Shown here in pieces: positions 10,903 through 64,000 of a stretch of 64,000 nt of DNA. Source of the stretch: an uncultured Actinomycetota bacterium (lineage in GTDB: Bacteria > Actinomycetota > Actinomycetes > CAWDCV01); assembly GCA_963801015.1 (NCBI GenBank), contig CAWDCV010000003.1:266886-330885 (forward strand), given 5' to 3'. The translations under genes were made by a program, and so were the position numbers. Positions within the stretch are counted from its first letter, which is position 1, and every line of letters begins with the position of its first letter. The notes under the pieces were generated by a model, which was given only the letters and a program-made list of their open reading frames with translations, was not told the DNA's origin and ran no database searches.

Positions 10903-12327
10903 TCACAGGTCGTAGTAGAGCTCGAACTCGTGCGGGTGCGGGCGGAGGCGGATCGGGTCGATCTCGTTCTCCCGCTTCCACAGCACCCAGGTGTCGATGA
11001 GGTCGGGCGTGAAGACATCGCCCTCGAGCAGGTAGGCGTGGTCTTCCTCGAGTGCGTCGAGCACCGCCGGCAGCGATCCCGGGACCTGCTGCACGGAGAT
11101 GTGCTCGTCCGGCGGGAGCTCGTACAGGTCCTTGTCGATGGGGTCGGCGGGCTCCATCTTGTTGCGGATGCCGTCGAGGCCGGCCATGAGCATCGCCGAG
11201 AAGGCGAGGTAGGGGTTGCAGGACGGGTCGGGCACGCGGAACTCGAGCCGCTTGGCCTTGGCGTTCGGCCCGGTGATCGGGATCCGGATGCAGGCGGACC
11301 GGTTGCGCTGTGAGTACACGAGGTTCACCGGCGCCTCGAAACCGGGCACGAGCCGGTGGTAGCTGTTGACGGTCGGACACGTGAACGCCAGCAGCGACGG
11401 GGCGTGCGCGAGCAAGCCGCCGATGTACCAGCGCGCCGCGTCCGACAGGCCGGCGTAGCCGAGTTCGTCGTAGAACAGCGGCTCGCCGGCCTTCCACAGC
11501 GACTGGTGGCAGTGCATGCCCGAGCCGTTGTCGCCGAACAGTGGCTTCGGCATGAACGTTGCCGTCTTGCCCGCGGCCCACGCGGTGTTCTTGATGACGT
11601 ACTTGTAGAGCATCAGCTTGTCGGCTGCGTGAAGCAGGCTGTCGAAGCGGTAGTTGATCTCCGCCTGTCCAGCGGTGCCCACCTCGTGGTGAGCGCGCTC
11701 CACCTCGATGCCGACAGCGCCGAGGTTCGCGACCATGTCGTCGCGCAGATCGGCGTAGTGGTCGACCGGCGGCACCGGGAAGTAACCGCCCTTGTACCGC
11801 GTCTTGTAGCCGCGGTTGCCGCCCTCCTCGACGCGGCCGGTGTTCCACTGGCCCTCGACCGAGTCGATGAAGTAGTAGCCGGCGTTCTGCCGGGTCTCGA
11901 AACGGATGTCGTCGAAGACGTAGAACTCCGCTTCTGGACCGAAGTAGACCGTGTCCGCGATGCCGGTGGAGGCGAGGTGGGCCTCGGCCTTGGCGGCAAT
12001 GTTGCGTGGGTCGCGACTGTACGGCTCGTCGGTCAGCGGGTCGAGAATGTCGAAGTTCAGCGCGAGCGTCTTGCGCACCCGGAACGGGTCGACGAATGCC
12101 GTCGTGGGATCGGGCTTCAGCTTCATGTCCGACTCGTGGATCTCCTGGAAGCCACGGATCGACGAGCCGTCGAACATCAGGCCGGTGATGAACGCGTCCT
12201 CGTCGAAGGCGCTCGCCGGCATCGTGAAGTGCTGCATGACGCCCGGCAAATCGCAGAACCGGACGTCGACGTACTCCACGCCCTCGTCCTTGATGTAGCT
12301 CAGGACCTCGTCGGCGTTCTCGAACAT
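10903..12327 (-). CDS. glnA: type I glutamine synthetase
   Basis: [37 protein letters not shown]... is the canonical actinobacterial GlnA1 N-terminus. 474 aa. GGGAGG RBS lies 4 nt upstream of ATG 12327; the upstream ORF extension is rejected. Confidence 0.95.
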
Positions 12328-12413
12328 CCAACCTCCCTTGTCCGGGAGCCGGATGCGCCCGGAGTGACGTCCGCGACAGTAGGTGAGGGCAGTTTCTCGG
12401 CCATTGCTCTGGT

Positions 12414-12449
12414 GTTTCGCCGGTGTTACCCACCTGGTCGCAGTGTTAC
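12414..12449 (-). promoter_or_regulatory. candidate GlnR operator upstream of glnA
   Basis: Minus strand: GTAAC-ACTGCG-ACCAG-GTGG-GTAAC-ACCGGC-GAAAC. The proximal box fits the published GTnAC-n6-GAAAC consensus exactly; the distal box has a good a-site and a degenerate b-site. It lies 87-122 nt upstream of the glnA ATG. Confidence 0.4.
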
Positions 12450-12509
12450 GGCAGAGGTCAACGGTGGCCCCGACGTGCAACATCGGGGCGCGCCACTAGC
12501 CTCGTTGTC

Positions 12510-12947
12510 GTGGATCGTACGGGGGCCGCGACCGGCGACGGCGCCGGCCCGACCCCGCAGGCGTACCCGGGTCAGCGGCTCGGCCGACCACAGTCCGGTC
12601 CCGGATCGGTGGCGAGTTTCGGCCCGCGGCTGCTCGCATTCATCCTCGACTCGGCGATGAGCCTGCTCGTCGCGCTGCTGCTCTTCCGACCGCTGGAGCA
12701 GTGGACGGTCAGCGCCGTCTTCGCTGTCGAGGTCCTGATCCTCACCGCATTCGGCGGGGCAAGCGCGGGGCAGCGCGTGGTCGGCATGCGGGTCGTGCGG
12801 ATGTCCGACGGCGACCCGATCGCCATTCCTGCCGCCATCGTGCGGACTGCACTGCTCCTGCTGATCATTCCGGCGATCATCTGGGACGCCGATGGGCGCG
12901 GCCTGCATGACAAGGCCGCCGGCACGGTGCTGATCCGCACCCGCTAG
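12510..12947 (+). CDS. RDD family membrane protein
   Basis: RLLAFILDSAMSLLVALLLF..., GQRVVGMRVV..., RGLHDKAAGTVLI are RDD-domain hallmarks. Position next to glnA1 matches Rv2219A. GTG 12510 chosen as start. Confidence 0.8.
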   Translation: MDRTGAATGDGAGPTPQAYPGQRLGRPQSGPGSVASFGPRLLAFILDSAMSLLVALLLFRPLEQWTVSAVFAVEVLILTAFGGASAGQRVVGMRVVRMSDGDPIAIPAAIVRTALLLLIIPAIIWDADGRGLHDKAAGTVLIRTR

Positions 12948-58637: not shown

Positions 58638-59735
58638 ATGCGGGTCCTCGTTGCTCCGGATAAATTCGCGGGCACCCTCACCGCGGTCGAGGCAGCGGAT
58701 GCCATCGCGCAGGGGTGGCAGCGCACGGCTCCCGTTGACGTCGTGACGACGGCACCGCTGTCCGACGGCGGTCCCGGCTTCGTGGACGTCGTCCAGGCAG
58801 CGCTCGGCGGGAAGCTGCTGTCGGTCACCGCGACCGGTCCGCGCGGCGAGCAGGTGCCAACGACGCTGCTCCTTGTCGACGGCACCGCGTATATCGAGGC
58901 GGCGCAGGCATGCGGCCTGCACCTCATCCCCCCGCCGGAGCGGGATCCGAGCACGGCGACGTCGTACGGCGTCGGACAGTTGATCGGGTCGGCGGTGGAC
59001 GAGGGCGCTGCTCGGATCGTCGTCGGGCTCGGCGGCAGCGCGACCAACGACGGCGGCGCTGGCATGCTCGCCGCGCTGGGCGCGATGCCAGTCGCCGAGC
59101 TTCGGCTCGGTGGCGCCGCGCTGGCCGACGTGGCAGAGGTCGACCTCTCGCCCGCTCGTGAGCGCGTCGCCGGCGTGGAGCTGGTAGCGGCGAGTGACGT
59201 GGACAACCCACTGCTCGGCCTGCGCGGGGCGAGCAACGTCTTCGGCGCCCAGAAGGGCGCCACGCCCGACGACATCCAGCGCCTCGATGGAGCCCTCACT
59301 CATTTCGCCGAGCAAACCGATCGGCGGCTCGCGGACAGCAAGGGCGCCGGAGCGGCCGGCGGCCTCGGCTTCGGGCTGGCGCTGCTCGGAGCCACTCGAG
59401 TACCGGGTATCGGCACCGTCCTCGATCTGGTCGGCTTCGACGCGCTGGTCCAGTCGGCCGACGTCGTGGTCACTGGCGAGGGCTCGTTCGATTACCAGTC
59501 GTTGAGTGGCAAGGTCGTCAACGGCGTGGCCGAAGCCGCGACACGGGCGGCTCGCCCGACCGTGGTTCTCGCCGGGCGAGTCGAGGTCGGGCGGCGAGAG
59601 ATGGCCGCCGTCGGGGTGGAGTCCGCCTATTCGGTCGTCGACCTCGCTGGGTCCGTCGAGGCTGCACTGGACCGACCGGCAGAGCGACTTGCCGACTTGG
59701 CCGCTCGCGTGGCTCGCACCTGGTCGCGCCGCTGA
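58638..59735 (+). CDS. glxK: glycerate kinase
   Basis: MRVLVAPDKFAGTLTAVEAADAIAQGW..., LSDGGPGF, VVTGEGSFDYQSLSGKV. Confidence 0.9.
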   Translation: MRVLVAPDKFAGTLTAVEAADAIAQGWQRTAPVDVVTTAPLSDGGPGFVDVVQAALGGKLLSVTATGPRGEQVPTTLLLVDGTAYIEAAQACGLHLIPPPERDPSTATSYGVGQLIGSAVDEGAARIVVGLGGSATNDGGAGMLAALGAMPVAELRLGGAALADVAEVDLSPARERVAGVELVAASDVDNPLLGLRGASNVFGAQKGATPDDIQRLDGALTHFAEQTDRRLADSKGAGAAGGLGFGLALLGATRVPGIGTVLDLVGFDALVQSADVVVTGEGSFDYQSLSGKVVNGVAEAATRAARPTVVLAGRVEVGRREMAAVGVESAYSVVDLAGSVEAALDRPAERLADLAARVARTWSRR

Positions 59736-59864
59736 AGCCAGTGGTCGCGTACTCGGCCTGGGTGGCGCAACGTGTCACTATGGATGGGAATGCAGGGCCG
59801 GGGTGACTCGGTTGGCACTGCTGTACGGCCCATAATGTCCGCACCACCACATAGGAGCTCGTCC

Positions 59865-60245
59865 ATGACGGTCAGTGGCAGTACCGAAACCACGACCAGC
59901 CCGACGTCGACTCCGGCGCCGAGCGGGATCATCCTCACCGACGTAGCAGCCGGCAAGGTCAAGAGCCTGCTCGAGCAGGAAGGCCGCGACGACCTGTCGC
60001 TGCGGGTCGCGGTACAGCCGGGCGGCTGCTCCGGCCTGCGTTACCAGCTTTTCTTCGACGAGCGCTCGCTCGACGGCGACGTCGTCAAGGACTTCAGCGG
60101 CGTCTCCGTTGTCACCGACCGGATGAGCGCCCCCTACCTCGGCGGCGCCACGATCGACTTTGTCGACACGATCGAGAAGCAGGGCTTCACCATCGACAAC
60201 CCGAACGCCTCCGGCTCGTGCGCATGCGGAGATTCGTTCCACTGA
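59865..60245 (+). CDS. erpA: iron-sulfur cluster insertion protein (HesB/IscA/ErpA family)
   Basis: LRVAVQPGGCSGLRYQLFFD and the C-terminal CACGDSFH motif. ATG 59865 follows AGGAG. Confidence 0.9.
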   Translation: MTVSGSTETTTSPTSTPAPSGIILTDVAAGKVKSLLEQEGRDDLSLRVAVQPGGCSGLRYQLFFDERSLDGDVVKDFSGVSVVTDRMSAPYLGGATIDFVDTIEKQGFTIDNPNASGSCACGDSFH

Positions 60246-61319
60246 TCACCCATTGGGGGCGCACTCGCTGATCGCCAGCCGCATGTGCCGCTCGGTGATC
60301 GCAGGAGCAGCGTCGTCGCACGCGCGAGCCAGCGCCGTGTGAGCCACGTACATCACTCGTCGGCGCAGGTCGCCCGTGCGCCCACGCATGTAGTGGCGCA
60401 TCAGCAGGCGCAGTGCCACTGGGGTGACCAGCTCGGTCAGCGGCTGATCGGTGACGTCAGAGACGCGCTGCGCGAGGATCCGGGCCAGGCCCGTCACATC
60501 CGGCACGGGGGGCACGTGCACGGAGCTCTCGATGAAGCCCTCGGCGGATCGGTACCCCGGCTGGGTGACGTAATGGTCGTGCACCGCTATCACGGCCGCC
60601 GCGGGTAGCTCTTCGGCGATCAGCCGAACTACCCGACCGAAGAACCCGTCGACCAGTCGCGCCGAGTCGGCGGGAGCCGATACCTGTAGCCACTTGTCGG
60701 TGTCGTCGAACACCAGCACGGGCAGCAGGTCCCGTGCTGCGATGAGCTCGAGGATGCGCCGCGCCTGCTCGACCACCTCCGCTCCCGATCGAGGTGAGGA
60801 TGGCGAGCTCGCCGAGTCGAGTTCCGCGGCGAGCTCCAGCCGTACGCCCATCCAGCTCGGAGCCACGCTGACCTTGGTCGGACGGCGCCGATCCGCGGGC
60901 AAGGTGGGAGTCGTCCGGCGCAGGATCCGGCGAGCGTCGTCCTCGTCGGCCGGCTGCGCGTACGCGATGTACCGAGCGACGGTGCGCACCAGATGCGCGG
61001 CGAAGGCGACCGGAGAGGTCGCCACCTCCGCGTCCTCCAGCGATACCGGGATCGGCAGCGGGGCGAGGTCCTCGACCAGCGGTCCTAGCACGTACGACAT
61101 GACACTCGACTTGCCCGACCCGCTGCTGCCGATCAGAGCGACCTGCTCACCGCGCCGCAATGCCGCATCGAGGGTCTGCTCGCAGGTCGTCCCGCCGGTC
61201 AGCTCGTCGAACGGCACATGGAAGCGAAACAGTTCTGCCTGCCGCGGCGCGGGGTCGAACACGTGCTCATCGCGAAGGCGTAGCAAGGTGTCAGCGGTGT
61301 CGGTGGCGTCCGCGGTCAC
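60246..61319 (-). CDS. ORC/Cdc6-like AAA+ ATPase, no recognisable DNA-binding or effector domain
   Basis: Walker A VALIGSSGSGKSS, Walker B LLPVLVFDDTDKW, sensor-1-like AAVIAVHD, lid GDLRRRVMYVAHTALARACDDAAPAITERHMRLAI. GTG start overlaps the upstream stop (GTGA). Confidence 0.7.
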   Translation of the reverse strand: MTADATDTADTLLRLRDEHVFDPAPRQAELFRFHVPFDELTGGTTCEQTLDAALRRGEQVALIGSSGSGKSSVMSYVLGPLVEDLAPLPIPVSLEDAEVATSPVAFAAHLVRTVARYIAYAQPADEDDARRILRRTTPTLPADRRRPTKVSVAPSWMGVRLELAAELDSASSPSSPRSGAEVVEQARRILELIAARDLLPVLVFDDTDKWLQVSAPADSARLVDGFFGRVVRLIAEELPAAAVIAVHDHYVTQPGYRSAEGFIESSVHVPPVPDVTGLARILAQRVSDVTDQPLTELVTPVALRLLMRHYMRGRTGDLRRRVMYVAHTALARACDDAAPAITERHMRLAISECAPNG

Positions 61320-62281
61320 GGTCGCACGGTAACCGCCGTGTAGACCGTCCGTGGCCGGCCGGGTCCGTTGCGCACCGTCGTCGTCTCGACGAGCCCAGCC
61401 TCGAGCAGCTCACGCAGCAACTGGGCGGCACGCGACCGAGTCCAGCCGTGCCGGGCGAGGAGGCCGGGATCGGACGCGCTGGCCGGGCCAGAGGCCTCGA
61501 GGTCCGCGACGAGCTCGGCGGCAGCGGGGGAGACGGCTGACAGCCGCCGATCGCGTTCTCGGGCGCTGCCCGCCAGCGCCTCGGTAGCGGCCGGCTCGGC
61601 CAGGGCAACTCGGGTGGCGCTCAGCAACGCGCGCGGATTACCCGCGGCGAAGTCGACGATCGTCGCCAGCGCGTCGTCGGCGAGTTGCCCGTTGGGTACC
61701 CGAGCGCGGACGAGCGCGCGCGCCTGATCGTCCGGCAGGGCAGGCAGCGCCACTTCGACGTCGAAGAATGCGTCCGCCGGAGGGCGCAGCAGGGTGGCTC
61801 GGTCGCGGTCGGTGCACGTCACTGCCCAGCGGACAGGCAGCTGCCACAGCTCGTCGCGCAGCGTGCCGAACAGGCCGTACGCCGCGGCGGGCACCGCGTT
61901 GTCGAGCAACGCCACCGCCGGCAGTGCGTCCGCGGGGGTAGAGAGGAGGCGTTGCAGCGGCCAGTCGTCCGTTCTGTCGAAAGCAGTGCGGCGCTGCGAG
62001 CCGTCGCCATCCATGAGTCGCGCCGTCACGACGTCGACGAGCTGCTGCGTCGTCAGCGCCGTACCAGCGTCGATCCAGAGCGAAGCAACCCCTTGCTCCC
62101 GCAGGTTCCTCGCCACTTGGCGCAGCACCGTGGTCCTACCTGACCCGCGCTCGCCGACCAGCAGCACGTTGAGATCCGCGTTGACGGCGCCCACGACGCG
62201 GCTCACGGTTGCGTCGCGGCCCACCACAAGTGCCGCGTCGAGCTGGTTGTCGAGGAGCGGTCGACCACTCAACTGCAACAC
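61316..62281 (-). CDS. ORC/Cdc6-like AAA+ ATPase with C-terminal winged-helix domain
   Basis: LVVGRDATVSRVVGAVNADLNVLLVGERGSGRTTVLRQV (Walker A), AVALLDN (degenerate Walker B), AAGNPRALLSATRVAL lid, C-terminal GWTRSRAAQLLRELLEAGLVETTTVRNGPGRPRTVYT. GTG 62281 chosen (leaderless geometry). The ORF-track extension to 63547 is antisense to adoK. Confidence 0.7.
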   Translation of the reverse strand: MLQLSGRPLLDNQLDAALVVGRDATVSRVVGAVNADLNVLLVGERGSGRTTVLRQVARNLREQGVASLWIDAGTALTTQQLVDVVTARLMDGDGSQRRTAFDRTDDWPLQRLLSTPADALPAVALLDNAVPAAAYGLFGTLRDELWQLPVRWAVTCTDRDRATLLRPPADAFFDVEVALPALPDDQARALVRARVPNGQLADDALATIVDFAAGNPRALLSATRVALAEPAATEALAGSARERDRRLSAVSPAAAELVADLEASGPASASDPGLLARHGWTRSRAAQLLRELLEAGLVETTTVRNGPGRPRTVYTAVTVRP

Positions 62282-62306
62282 AAATCTCACTATACGTTCA
62301 CAACGT
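62282..62306 (-). promoter_or_regulatory. candidate leaderless promoter (-10 TATAGT) overlapped by a 5+5 palindrome
   Basis: Minus strand: ACGTTgtgAACGT-ATAGT-gagattt-GTG. TATAGT (62289-62294) lies 7 nt upstream of GTG 62281. Palindrome ACGTT-cac-AACGT lies at 62294-62306. This is the only AT-rich patch in the neighbourhood. Confidence 0.4.
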
Positions 62307-62362
62307 TTCGTGGGAAAGCCGGCGGCACTGTCATTCGAGGATCGCCCAGTACCCTGCACCCC

Positions 62363-63349
62363 GTGCGCATCGCCGTCACCGGATCTATCGCGACCGATCA
62401 TCTGATGACGTTCCCGGGACGGTTCGCCGACTCCTTCGTCACGGACAAGCTGCACTCGGTGTCGCTGTCGTTCCTCGTCGATGACCTCCACGTGCGGCGC
62501 GGCGGCGTTGCCGCGAACATCGCCTTCGGACTCGGCTGCCTGGGCCTGCGGCCGGTACTCGTCGGCGCCGTCGGCCCGGATTTCGCTGACTATCGCTCCT
62601 GGTTGGAGCGGCACGGCGTCGACTGCGACTCCGTCCGGGTGTCGACGGTGGCCCATACCGCCCGGTTCGTCTGCACGACCGATATCGATCACAACCAGAT
62701 CGCCTCCTTCTATCCGGGTGCCATGACCGAGGACCGCGAGCTCGAGCTGTGGCCGGTGGCCGAACGCCTCGGCGACCTCGACCTGGTCCTCATCGGCGCC
62801 ACCGATCCGGCCGCGATGACCCGACACACGCAGGAGTGCCGCCAGCGCGGCTACCGCTTCGTGGCGGATCCGTCTCAGCAGCTGGCGCGGATGGACGGTC
62901 CGGAGATCCGGCTGCTGGTCGAGGGCGCGGCGTACCTGTTCACCAACGAGTACGAAGCAGCCTTGACCGAGCAGAAGACCGGCTGGACTTCGCAGCAGAT
63001 CCTCGATCGCGTTGACGTGCGGGTGACCACACTCGGCAAGAAGGGCGCCATCGTCGAGCGGTCCGGGCAGCCTTCGGTCCAGGTGGCCTGCCCGCGCGAG
63101 GAAGGCAAGGTCGATCCGACCGGCGTGGGTGACGCGTTCCGCGCTGGCTTCCTCGCCGGCATCGGGTGGGGCTTGTCGGACGAACGCTGCGCACAGCTCG
63201 GCGCGATGCTCGCGACATTCGTCATCGAGACGGTCGGCACCCAGGAGTACGACCTCGGGCATGGGCAGTTTCTCGACCGCTTCACCGAGGCGTACGGCGC
63301 TGAGGCTGCTGCAGATATCACCGCTCATCTGCGGCTGATCCCCGCCTGA
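62363..63349 (+). CDS. adoK: PfkB-family carbohydrate/nucleoside kinase, adenosine kinase-like
   Basis: MRIAVTGSIATDHLMTFPGRFADSFV..., GGVAANIAFGLGCLG, DPTGVGDAFRAGFLAG. Same position as Rv2202c relative to hesB. Confidence 0.8.
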   Translation: MRIAVTGSIATDHLMTFPGRFADSFVTDKLHSVSLSFLVDDLHVRRGGVAANIAFGLGCLGLRPVLVGAVGPDFADYRSWLERHGVDCDSVRVSTVAHTARFVCTTDIDHNQIASFYPGAMTEDRELELWPVAERLGDLDLVLIGATDPAAMTRHTQECRQRGYRFVADPSQQLARMDGPEIRLLVEGAAYLFTNEYEAALTEQKTGWTSQQILDRVDVRVTTLGKKGAIVERSGQPSVQVACPREEGKVDPTGVGDAFRAGFLAGIGWGLSDERCAQLGAMLATFVIETVGTQEYDLGHGQFLDRFTEAYGAEAAADITAHLRLIPA

Positions 63350-63372
63350 CGCGCCCGCCTGCAGGGCCGGAC

Positions 63373-64000
63373 GTGCGCATCGAGCCACCGCCGAGCCGCT
63401 GGCTCTTCCCACCGCCGAGCGCAGCCGACGCGGAGGGGATCGTCGCCCTGGGCGCGGATCTGCTACCCGGAACGCTGCTGGCCGCCTACCGCACCGGCCT
63501 GTTCCCGATGCCGATCGGGCGGCGGTACCCGACGGCCTGGTGGTCACCGGATCCGCGGGGGATCTTGCCGCTGGAGTCGCTGCGCATCAGCCGGTCGCTG
63601 CGAGCATCGACGCGCCGATTCGAGATGACCGTCGATGCCGCTTTTGCTCAAGTAGTGCTCGGCTGCAGCGACCCGGGTCGCCCGCACGGGTGGATCAGCC
63701 GCGACATCCGAGACGCCTACGTGATGCTGCACCGGCTCGGCTGGGCGCACAGCGTCGAGGCGTGGGCACCGGACGGGACGCTGGCCGGCGGCCTGTACGG
63801 CGTGGCCATCGGCGGACTGTTCGCCGGCGAGTCGATGTTCTCCGCCCAGCGCGATGCCTCGAAGGTGGCGCTGGTGCACCTGGTTGGCTTGCTCCTTGAA
63901 GATCGACGACCGCACCGGCTTCTGGACGTCCAGTGGGCGACGCCGCACATGCAATCGCTCGGCGCCCGTGCGATCCCGCGCGAGGAGTACCTGGGCCTGC
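63373..64000 (+). CDS. aat: leucyl/phenylalanyl-tRNA--protein transferase (3' end beyond window)
   Basis: My own translation from GTG 63373: ...AAYRTGLFPMPIGRRYPTAWWSPDPRGILPLESLRISRSLRAS...GWISRDIRDAYVMLHRLGWAHSVEAWAPDGTLAGGLYGVAIGGLFAGESMFS...ASKVALVHL. It is absent from the ORF track because it is open-ended. Confidence 0.85.
   Translation, partial: MRIEPPPSRWLFPPPSAADAEGIVALGADLLPGTLLAAYRTGLFPMPIGRRYPTAWWSPDPRGILPLESLRISRSLRASTRRFEMTVDAAFAQVVLGCSDPGRPHGWISRDIRDAYVMLHRLGWAHSVEAWAPDGTLAGGLYGVAIGGLFAGESMFSAQRDASKVALVHLVGLLLEDRRPHRLLDVQWATPHMQSLGARAIPREEYLGL

Follow-up and report, generated by a model that had tools for sequence, protein, structure and literature searches.

Two paralogous ORC/Cdc6-like ATPases and a conserved putative operator-promoter form a mobile cassette in Actinomycetota

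Among the described systems closest to the locus reported here are the archaeal Orc1/Cdc6 proteins and BREX. Archaeal Orc1/Cdc6 proteins, such as A. pernix ORC1 (structure 2v1u) and S. solfataricus Orc1-1/Orc1-3 (2qby), combine an AAA+ base, a lid with a sensor arginine and a winged helix, and they include paralogue pairs with a dyad DNA site beside the gene. BREX systems comprise the ORC/Cdc6-type protein BrxC/PglY, which carries a winged helix-turn-helix (wHTH), the stand-alone ATPase BrxD, and BrxB and BrxF, which are inactive STAND- or ORC-like proteins; type 2 BREX is concentrated in actinomycetes (PMC12839542). We describe a two-gene cassette that shares features with both. It lies within a 64-kb stretch of DNA from an uncultured Actinomycetota bacterium (contig CAWDCV010000003.1; hereafter the window, meaning the whole stretch that was analysed), and it consists of gene A, whose ORC/Cdc6-like AAA+ product has a degenerate ATP site and carries a winged helix at its C-terminus, and gene B, whose product is an ORC/Cdc6-like AAA+ ATPase with intact catalytic motifs. 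The two genes strictly co-occur, they co-evolve with each other and with a dyad-symmetric putative operator, and the cassette moves as a unit between unrelated genomic slots.

Protein A is built like an archaeal Orc1/Cdc6 protein, and the cassette likewise combines two paralogues with a dyad beside the genes. However, sequence identity to the archaeal proteins is only 14–18% and sequence searches reach the P-loop alone. In addition, B has no winged helix, the ATP site of A is degenerate, and the dyad appears to be a promoter-operator rather than an origin. The host is also bacterial, and the cassette is accessory and mobile. The resemblance to BREX lies in the pairing of a wHTH-bearing ORC/Cdc6-like ATPase with a second ORC/STAND-like protein that is stand-alone or inactive. 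In contrast to BREX, the cassette has no linked gene for PglZ, the PglX/BrxX methyltransferase, PglW or a helicase (ten annotated contexts were covered for PglZ and PglX). BrxC is also much larger, at about 1200 amino acids (aa), and in the cassette it is the wHTH-bearing partner that is degenerate. Among PADLOC models, BrxF matched A weakly and locally at the P-loop (E 0.04–0.06), and nothing named BrxC or BrxD was retrieved.

The initial annotation of the window, made from the sequence alone, had noted that two minus-strand open reading frames (ORFs) overlap by GTGA and had judged them very likely to be co-expressed. The overlap is present (Table 1), and comparison with other genomes argues in the same direction. 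A search of 185,579 species genomes, using as query an alignment trimmed to 12 of 36 sequences, recovered 41 loci, all in Actinomycetota. Most of these are in metagenome-assembled genomes (MAGs) from soil or water, and the cultured carriers among them are Mobilicoccus spp.; other routes added Nakamurella lactea and plasmid pFiD188 of Rhodococcus fascians as carriers. In all 38 genome loci with enough DNA, a homologue of A lies immediately upstream of B on the same strand, so that the co-occurrence elsewhere proposed as a check in the initial annotation holds in every such locus. The stop and start codons overlap by exactly four nucleotides (ATGA or GTGA) in 24 of the 33 non-redundant loci. The pairwise identities of A and B are correlated (r = 0.87 over 528 locus pairs), and in 70% of the pairs B has diverged less than A.

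The strongest addition to the initial annotation is a conserved operator-promoter upstream of A. Its two arms vary in concert, and it moves along with the genes. A 13-bp palindrome, ACGTTnnnAACGT, had been pointed out as a plausible autoregulatory site. It is real, and it proves to be the core of a larger dyad of 29 bp. A palindrome with 5-bp arms is by itself at about chance level, and it is the comparison across loci that reveals the conserved dyad. The dyad is found upstream of A in nearly every one of approximately 50 loci, even where A is only about 30% identical and the flanks are unrelated, and its consensus is CTAACAnAACTTACTGTAAGTATnGTTAG. Its symmetry was assessed in 38 distinct operators by comparing mirror columns with partner columns slid by one to three positions and with 500 shuffles. 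Mirror positions are complementary in 78.9% of cases, versus 28–41% when the partner column is slid. Changes occur on both sides in 11 of the 14 dyad pairs, and none of the 500 shuffles matches the observed values. The pair at positions 3 and 27, for example, occurs as A:T, T:A, G:C and C:G, with outer arms CTAAC/GTTAG, CTCAC/GTGAG (in the clade of the window), CTTAC/GTAAG and CTGAC/GTCAG. The inner arms alternate between AACGTT..AACGT and CTTAC.GTAAG. One clade (L037:8923-8951) carries a perfect 14/14 palindrome of different sequence, CTAGCAAAAGTAGCTGCTACTTTTGCTAG, at the same 29-bp length and position, which suggests a switch in operator specificity.

The dyad coincides with predicted promoter elements. 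Its columns T21, A22, G25 and T26, which belong to the −10 box, are invariant or nearly so, and TTGC(TA) usually lies at its left edge, 17 nucleotides upstream of TAnnGT. The start codon of A follows the dyad by three or four nucleotides in nearly all loci, and the loci share no conserved Shine-Dalgarno sequence. A −10 box six to seven nucleotides before the start, with no Shine-Dalgarno sequence, is the layout expected of leaderless actinobacterial mRNAs, and the A-B mRNA is predicted to be leaderless. In the window, TATAGT does lie seven nucleotides upstream of GTG 62281, as initially annotated, and TTCCCA-16-TATAGT is the only match to a sigma-70-like promoter in 3 kb. The comparison thus strongly supports the earlier proposal of a leaderless promoter with an autoregulatory palindrome, with a dyad larger than first noted. 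We place the start of A at GTG 62281 and not at the in-frame GTG 62290 because homologues of A uniformly begin M-x-LSGRPLLD. An AT-rich patch had also been reported at the 5' end of the cassette. The patch exists, but it is modest, with a guanine-cytosine (GC) fraction of 0.645 versus about 0.69 in 400-nucleotide windows. We also considered a structured RNA or DNA hairpin and rejected it. No Rfam model matched, the predicted fold is weak (−4.4 kcal/mol, z-score −0.7), and the dyad lies upstream of the predicted transcription start. Given the weak hairpin and the lack of an Rfam match, the dyad is more readily understood as a putative protein-binding site than as a nucleic-acid structure.

The dyad occurs once per locus, both within 10 kb on either side of each locus and across the 64-kb window. 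An exact-pattern search of 241 million metagenome records returned 22 matches, of which 20 lie directly before a gene for A, one is at a contig end, and one is a deletion scar. The scar (L056:1328-1380) consists of an operator, CTCACACTCCTTACCGTAAGTAAGGTTAG, followed by CTG CAG CTC AGC GGT CGA and then unrelated sequence. Six codons from the start of A thus remain, the ATG having become CTG, and the cassette is intact in the close relatives L058 and L022. Since the dyad is found only at A, there is no sign of a regulon, and the operator appears to belong to the cassette itself.

These matches bear on one alternative, namely that A and B are an ordinary ATP-switched pair of transcription factors with a regulon elsewhere, comparable to a small LAL/AfsR- or MalT-type regulator with a helper ATPase. 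A joins an AAA_16-type NTPase to a winged helix as LAL-type regulators do, the operator overlaps the promoter of A, many loci lie among metabolic genes, and a pair of genes for an extracytoplasmic function (ECF) sigma factor and a possible anti-sigma factor follows the cassette in 11 Nakamurella-type loci. However, we consider this alternative improbable. The dyad is found only upstream of A, once per locus, with 22 of 22 metagenome matches at A; no neighbour is conserved across clades; and a patchy distribution with copies on a plasmid and in mobile islands is unlike that of a core regulator.

The predicted structures of the two proteins agree with their initial assignment as ORC/Cdc6-type AAA+ proteins. 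The AlphaFold2 (AF2) model of A has a mean predicted local distance difference test (pLDDT) score of 91 and contains an AAA+ base, a lid and a winged helix. Its best Foldseek matches in the Protein Data Bank (PDB) are archaeal Orc1/Cdc6 proteins on DNA (2v1u and 2qby, E 4.5e-10), followed by ORC1/Cdc6, SSO1545 (2fna), NB-ARC, RuvB and clamp loaders. The model of B (pLDDT 86) has no winged helix, and its best matches are 2v1u, 1w5t and ORC4 (E 1.5e-5 to 1e-3), then HslU and TnsC. By fold, as confidently modelled, both proteins are ORC/Cdc6-type AAA+ ATPases. They are also distant paralogues across the whole ATPase module, since a profile-profile alignment of A and B (hhalign) gives 97% probability, E 5e-11, over 213 columns. 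As candidates for the initiator-specific helical motif that follows strand 2 in the ORC/Cdc6 clade, the AF2 secondary structure shows two helices between strands 2 and 3 in A (residues 78–91 and 108–114) and, in B, an inserted helical segment of about 100 residues (97–194). B also carries a conserved N-terminal extension of 55 residues with an invariant HVPFD.

All sequence motifs cited in the initial annotation are present in the translations (GERGSGRTT, LLDN, GNPRALL and GRPRTVYT in A; GSSGSGKSS, VLVFDDTD and GDLRRR...ITERHMRLAI in B), and the asymmetry that it drew from them, between a degenerate wHTH partner and an intact tail-less partner, is real and extends across the family. The initial annotation had read the asymmetry as a possible sensor or regulator plus a motor. 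A homologues have K, R, T or V where Walker A calls for lysine, and they also vary at the position that follows the Walker B aspartate. In the window these are an arginine (GSGRT) and an asparagine in place of the acidic residue (LLDN). Invariant motifs of the A family are LSGRPLLD, FGxLRDELW, PPADAFF, GNPR, ASASD and the GRPR wing, and the winged-helix region of many members matches MarR_2, PadR and TrmB. The B family, in contrast, has invariant GxGKS/T, DDxD-W, H247, R285 and R319. An exhaustive hidden Markov model search (E ≤ 1e-30, clustered at 50% identity) places about 300 clusters in the B family, almost all of them stand-alone proteins of 330–360 aa.

The structural matches raise the question of a replication or partition module, relic or active, in which the ORC-like proteins would be an initiator pair and the dyad an origin- or centromere-like site on a mobile replicon. 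The best matches are indeed Orc1/Cdc6 proteins on origin DNA, including the Orc1-1/Orc1-3 heterodimer, the dyad adjoins an initiator-like gene, and one copy is on a linear plasmid. However, nearly all copies are single chromosomal insertions without other replicon, integrase or conjugation genes, and the cassette is on only one of 72,556 plasmids. Moreover, the dyad coincides exactly with the promoter, and no AT-rich unwinding region or repeated boxes adjoin it. We therefore regard a replication or partition role as very unlikely.

The initial annotation could not match the pair to any named system, and neither could we. PADLOC, Pfam, NCBIfam and PHROGs contain no named system that fits, and all four returned only generic matches at the level of P-loop or AAA_16 proteins. 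AAA_16 itself scores near its threshold in scans of A and B against curated libraries. The ORC/Cdc6 sequence models remain below their cutoffs and match at the P-loop only (TIGR02928, 14–18 bits versus 181; PF24389, 19 versus 27). The nSTAND models are likewise below the Pfam cutoffs, with 28.7 bits versus 34 for nSTAND5 against A and 18.7 versus 27.1 for nSTAND1 against B; the nSTAND5 match is confined to the P-loop. Of the PADLOC models, PDC-M54A and mad8 came closest to A and mad3 to B, with E 2.7e-4 at best and matches restricted to the P-loop. When profiles were run against the sequences in the PDB, only the P-loop matched (RecA, midasin, ABC transporters), and these matches were set aside as uninformative. 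PF01637 (ATPase_2) is matched by 23 of the 36 A homologues, and its member SSO1545 (2fna) is, like A, a small AAA+ protein with a C-terminal winged helix. To our knowledge the function of the PF01637 family is not known, and we know of no paired paralogue or conserved operator described for it. In the literature on nSTAND5 and ORC-CDC6-like proteins and on actinobacterial AAA+/wHTH defence pairs we found no description of the cassette, and the pFiD188 paper that we consulted does not discuss its A and B genes. In these searches the cassette thus matched no curated family, defence-system model or described system. Its parts are themselves known (ORC/Cdc6-STAND-type ATPases, a winged helix, an autoregulated bicistron), and it is not categorically new.

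The genomic position of the cassette varies. The slot between the erpA-like and pfkB-like genes, which was initially described as a variable slot in a conserved backbone, is occupied only in the clade of the window (L001, L042 and L049), and other clades carry the cassette elsewhere. Within this clade, B of L001 and L042 is 97–98% identical to that of the window, and in L049 the identities are 73% for A and 88% for B. Elsewhere the cassette is found between cbs and metB-region genes, in N. lactea (where acs precedes it and an ECF sigma factor gene follows), between larA and a malic-enzyme gene, beside a DUF222 gene, and near insertion sequence elements. In Phycicoccus it is located among a Tn3-like transposase, two resolvases, a DUF1016 nuclease and a Type ISP fragment, and in L050 it is beside an HsdM-like methyltransferase, DUF5131 and AAA_14-DUF4143. 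All-versus-all clustering of neighbouring ORFs revealed synteny within lineages but no third gene that is conserved from clade to clade. The 11 Nakamurella-type loci (L013-L022, L029, L044; positions ~11000-12800) have an ECF sigma factor gene and a 228-aa gene, a possible anti-sigma factor, after the cassette, and this neighbourhood is probably lineage synteny. A PADLOC scan of 223 neighbouring ORFs yielded matches to MTase_I, MTase_III, RmrT, MzaA, mad2 and PDC-S02, without a genome baseline; these ORFs were called by a heuristic based on GC at third codon positions, which misses low-GC genes. SNF2 helicases of about 1100 aa that match the PADLOC model DpdE (E ~1e-207) occur near the cassette in Mobilicoccus and one other clade (L032:11350-14697, L033:13354-16665 and L019:2852-6388).

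The plasmid copy is on pFiD188, the linear virulence plasmid of R. fascians D188 (L054:4175-8978, corresponding to NC_021080 38666-43469). Two other gene pairs directly precede the cassette here, first Phd/YefM-RelE/ParE and then a hypothetical gene with a RES NAD+ phosphorylase gene, so that three modules stand one behind the other. RefSeq lists the A and B proteins of this plasmid as 'ATPase AAA' and 'ATP-binding protein', and an Lsr2 gene and a DEAD/DEAH helicase gene are located downstream.

This setting invites comparison with type II toxin-antitoxin systems such as Phd/YefM-RelE/ParE, which are bicistronic, have the DNA-binding gene first and a 4-nucleotide overlap, and carry an operator over the promoter. 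As far as can be judged from the sequence and from comparison between loci, the cassette has this layout of an autoregulated bicistron. The cassette may accordingly be imagined as an ATP-dependent addiction module that stabilises its plasmid or genomic island, with A as autorepressor and neutraliser and B as a growth-arresting ATPase freed on loss of A. Besides the classic gene order, the palindromic operator and the predicted leaderless mRNA, this would fit with the faster evolution of A than B, the position on pFiD188 behind Phd/RelE and RES-type toxin-antitoxin pairs, and the L056 scar, which removes both genes together. However, both proteins are AAA+ ATPases of 35–40 kDa, large and unlike any known toxin or antitoxin fold, no toxin activity is known or predicted for them, and paralogy between partners is unusual for toxin-antitoxin pairs. 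Most copies are also chromosomal, in stable positions conserved within their lineage. An addiction module of this kind has, in our estimation, a low probability.

That the cassette has an autoregulated, co-inherited architecture is, in our view, highly probable. The model that we prefer adds to this a role in genetic conflict, either defence against invading DNA or plasmid or island addiction. Taken as a whole it is tentative, and we judge its chances to fall slightly short of even. A conflict role is favoured because of the patchy distribution, the variable insertion sites, the copies in mobile or restriction islands, the plasmid copy beside toxin-antitoxin modules, the L056 deletion scar, and the rare fusions to TIR or protease domains described below. 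Binding of the dyad by A, formation of a complex between A and B, a leaderless mRNA and a part in such conflicts are our inferences. In the proposed mechanism, a sigma-70-type promoter (TTGCTA-like −35 hexamer, 17-nucleotide spacer, TAnnGT −10 box) would fire six to seven nucleotides upstream of the start of A and give a leaderless bicistronic mRNA, from which B would be translated by coupling through the 4-nucleotide overlap. A most likely binds the 29-bp dyad as a dimer that uses the winged helix and the GRPR wing, and in this way keeps the operon that encodes it repressed. B and A most likely form a hetero-oligomer in which B supplies ATP hydrolysis, so that A would be the DNA-bound sensor or repressor and B the ATP-driven switch or output. 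The recognition helix of A changes with operator class (WTRPRVVQV with CTAAC, VSRPRLVTLF with CTGAC, and VSAARVSQVL with CTTACG), as expected if A reads the dyad.

Several observations weigh against this model. The correlation between recognition helix and operator class is confounded with phylogeny. Many loci lie among ordinary housekeeping genes, and the three neighbouring DpdE/ZorD matches are probably HelZ-like SNF2 housekeeping helicases. A recognisable effector is absent from about 99% of family members, and scans of A and B against Pfam, NCBIfam and PADLOC-DB 2.0.0 gave no match above threshold to any dedicated family. In the window, the GC content of the cassette equals that of its flanks and gives no compositional sign of recent transfer; the window copy is therefore no recent arrival. 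No copies were found in INPHARED phages, IMG/VR or BFVD, and pFiD188 is the sole carrier among the 72,556 plasmids. On these last results we rejected a phage origin and a wide plasmid distribution, both of which we had considered.

Fusions of B to recognisable effector domains are rare. Two family members (P0295 and P0382) carry a C-terminal CAP12/Pycsar TIR domain (PF10137, E 1e-21) and end in a hydrophobic stretch resembling a transmembrane helix; their nearest relatives, which are 68% identical, are unfused. At the P0295 locus (L050:6964-9734), A, the 4-nucleotide overlap and the dyad are all kept. A third protein (P0263, 585 aa) has a trypsin-like peptidase (PF13365) N-terminal to a B homologue that lacks the first ~25 residues. 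The linker of this protein looks low-complexity, and the protein could be a gene-calling fusion.

Such fusions, together with NB-ARC among the Foldseek matches of A and the weak nSTAND matches in the family, link the cassette to the STAND NTPases (nSTAND1/5/6, NACHT, NB-ARC; Avs-type), which share the P-loop NTPase, the helical lid and the winged helix. Unlike STAND proteins, the cassette proteins end at the lid (B) or the winged helix (A) and have no C-terminal sensor repeats, and the two would act together as a heteromer, not as one large polypeptide. It is conceivable, if doubtful, that the cassette is a minimal immune or addiction system that consists of the two ORC-like ATPases and needs no separate effector. 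Catalytically dead A would then sit on its own operator until a trigger, such as foreign DNA or the loss of A, passes control to B, whose ATP-driven assembly on DNA would be enough as an output, for instance through a block to replication or transcription. TIR or protease effectors would have been added in rare variants, and each lineage would have a private operator and winged-helix specificity.

Far more is known of the defence and addiction systems of Proteobacteria and Firmicutes than of those of actinobacteria. If the genetic-conflict model is correct, the cassette would be a compact two-ATPase addition to the actinobacterial repertoire, and bacteria would offer a case in which ORC/Cdc6-like paralogues act as a heteromer at one defined site in DNA. 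Whatever its function, the family of about 300 clusters has no dedicated Pfam or NCBIfam model at present. The locus is also tractable, with a 29-bp operator with arm-matched changes, a winged helix that tracks operator class, a predicted leaderless promoter and cultured carriers (Mobilicoccus spp., N. lactea and R. fascians with pFiD188), which together make binding specificity, ATP dependence and phenotype directly testable.

Table 1. Coordinates of the cassette, its predicted regulatory elements and its flanking genes in the 64-kb window
Feature	Position	Strand	Description
Gene A	61316..62281	minus	321 aa, start GTG 62281; ORC/Cdc6-like AAA+, degenerate ATP site, C-terminal winged helix
Gene B	60246..61319	minus	357 aa; ORC/Cdc6-like AAA+ ATPase, catalytic motifs intact, without DNA-binding tail
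GTGA overlap	61316..61319	minus	Stop of A and start of B share 4 nucleotides
Putative dyad-symmetric operator, 29 bp	62286..62314		Minus-strand sequence CCCACGAAACGTTGTGAACGTATAGTGAG; covers promoter spacer and −10 box
Core palindrome ACGTTcacAACGT	62294..62306		Inner arms of dyad; kept in L049 despite diverged remaining intergenic region
−35-like hexamer TTCCCA	62311..62316	minus	From promoter scan; TTGCTA or TTGCCT in most other loci
Predicted −10 box TATAGT	62289..62294	minus	Dyad positions 21–26; family consensus TAnnGT; 7 nucleotides before start codon
Walker A of A, GERGSGRTT	62129..62155	minus	Arg replaces canonical Lys
Winged helix of A, residues ~252–316	61334..61528	minus	ASASD..GWTRSRAAQLL..GRPRTVY wing; from AF2 secondary structure
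Walker A of B, GSSGSGKSS	61104..61130	minus	G64, G67, G69, K70 and S72 invariant
Walker B of B, VLVFDDTD, then KW	60696..60719	minus	D206, D208 and W210 invariant
Lid Arg R319 of B	60363..60365	minus	Sensor-2-like; first R of GDLRRR; invariant column
Flanking Fe-S_biosyn / ErpA-like gene	59865..60245	plus	Convergent with B; PF01521 on L042 orthologue
Flanking PfkB-family kinase gene (adoK of the initial annotation)	62363..63349	plus	Divergent from A; start 49 bp from dyad; PF00294 on L042 and L049 orthologues

At the downstream end of the cassette, the stop codon of B (TGA 60246-60248) directly abuts the end of the ErpA-like gene at 60245, as had been noted. The spacer at this junction (60243-60248) is thus zero in the window, versus a gap of 26 nucleotides in the close relative L042. 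No intrinsic-terminator-like site was found in a scan of 59700-62700. A minus-strand ORF of 743 aa (61316-63547) in the frame of A is an artefact, and its part upstream of 62281 is antisense to the GC-rich pfkB. In L001 (7972-10001), a MAG that is 97% identical, A and pfkB are each split into two frames, likely by long-read indel errors rather than pseudogenisation. The intergenic region upstream of A in the window (62282-62362) is 81 bp long and is shared with the divergent pfkB/adoK-like gene, and given the short distance from the dyad to the kinase start, binding of A could also affect the kinase promoter in the clade of the window.

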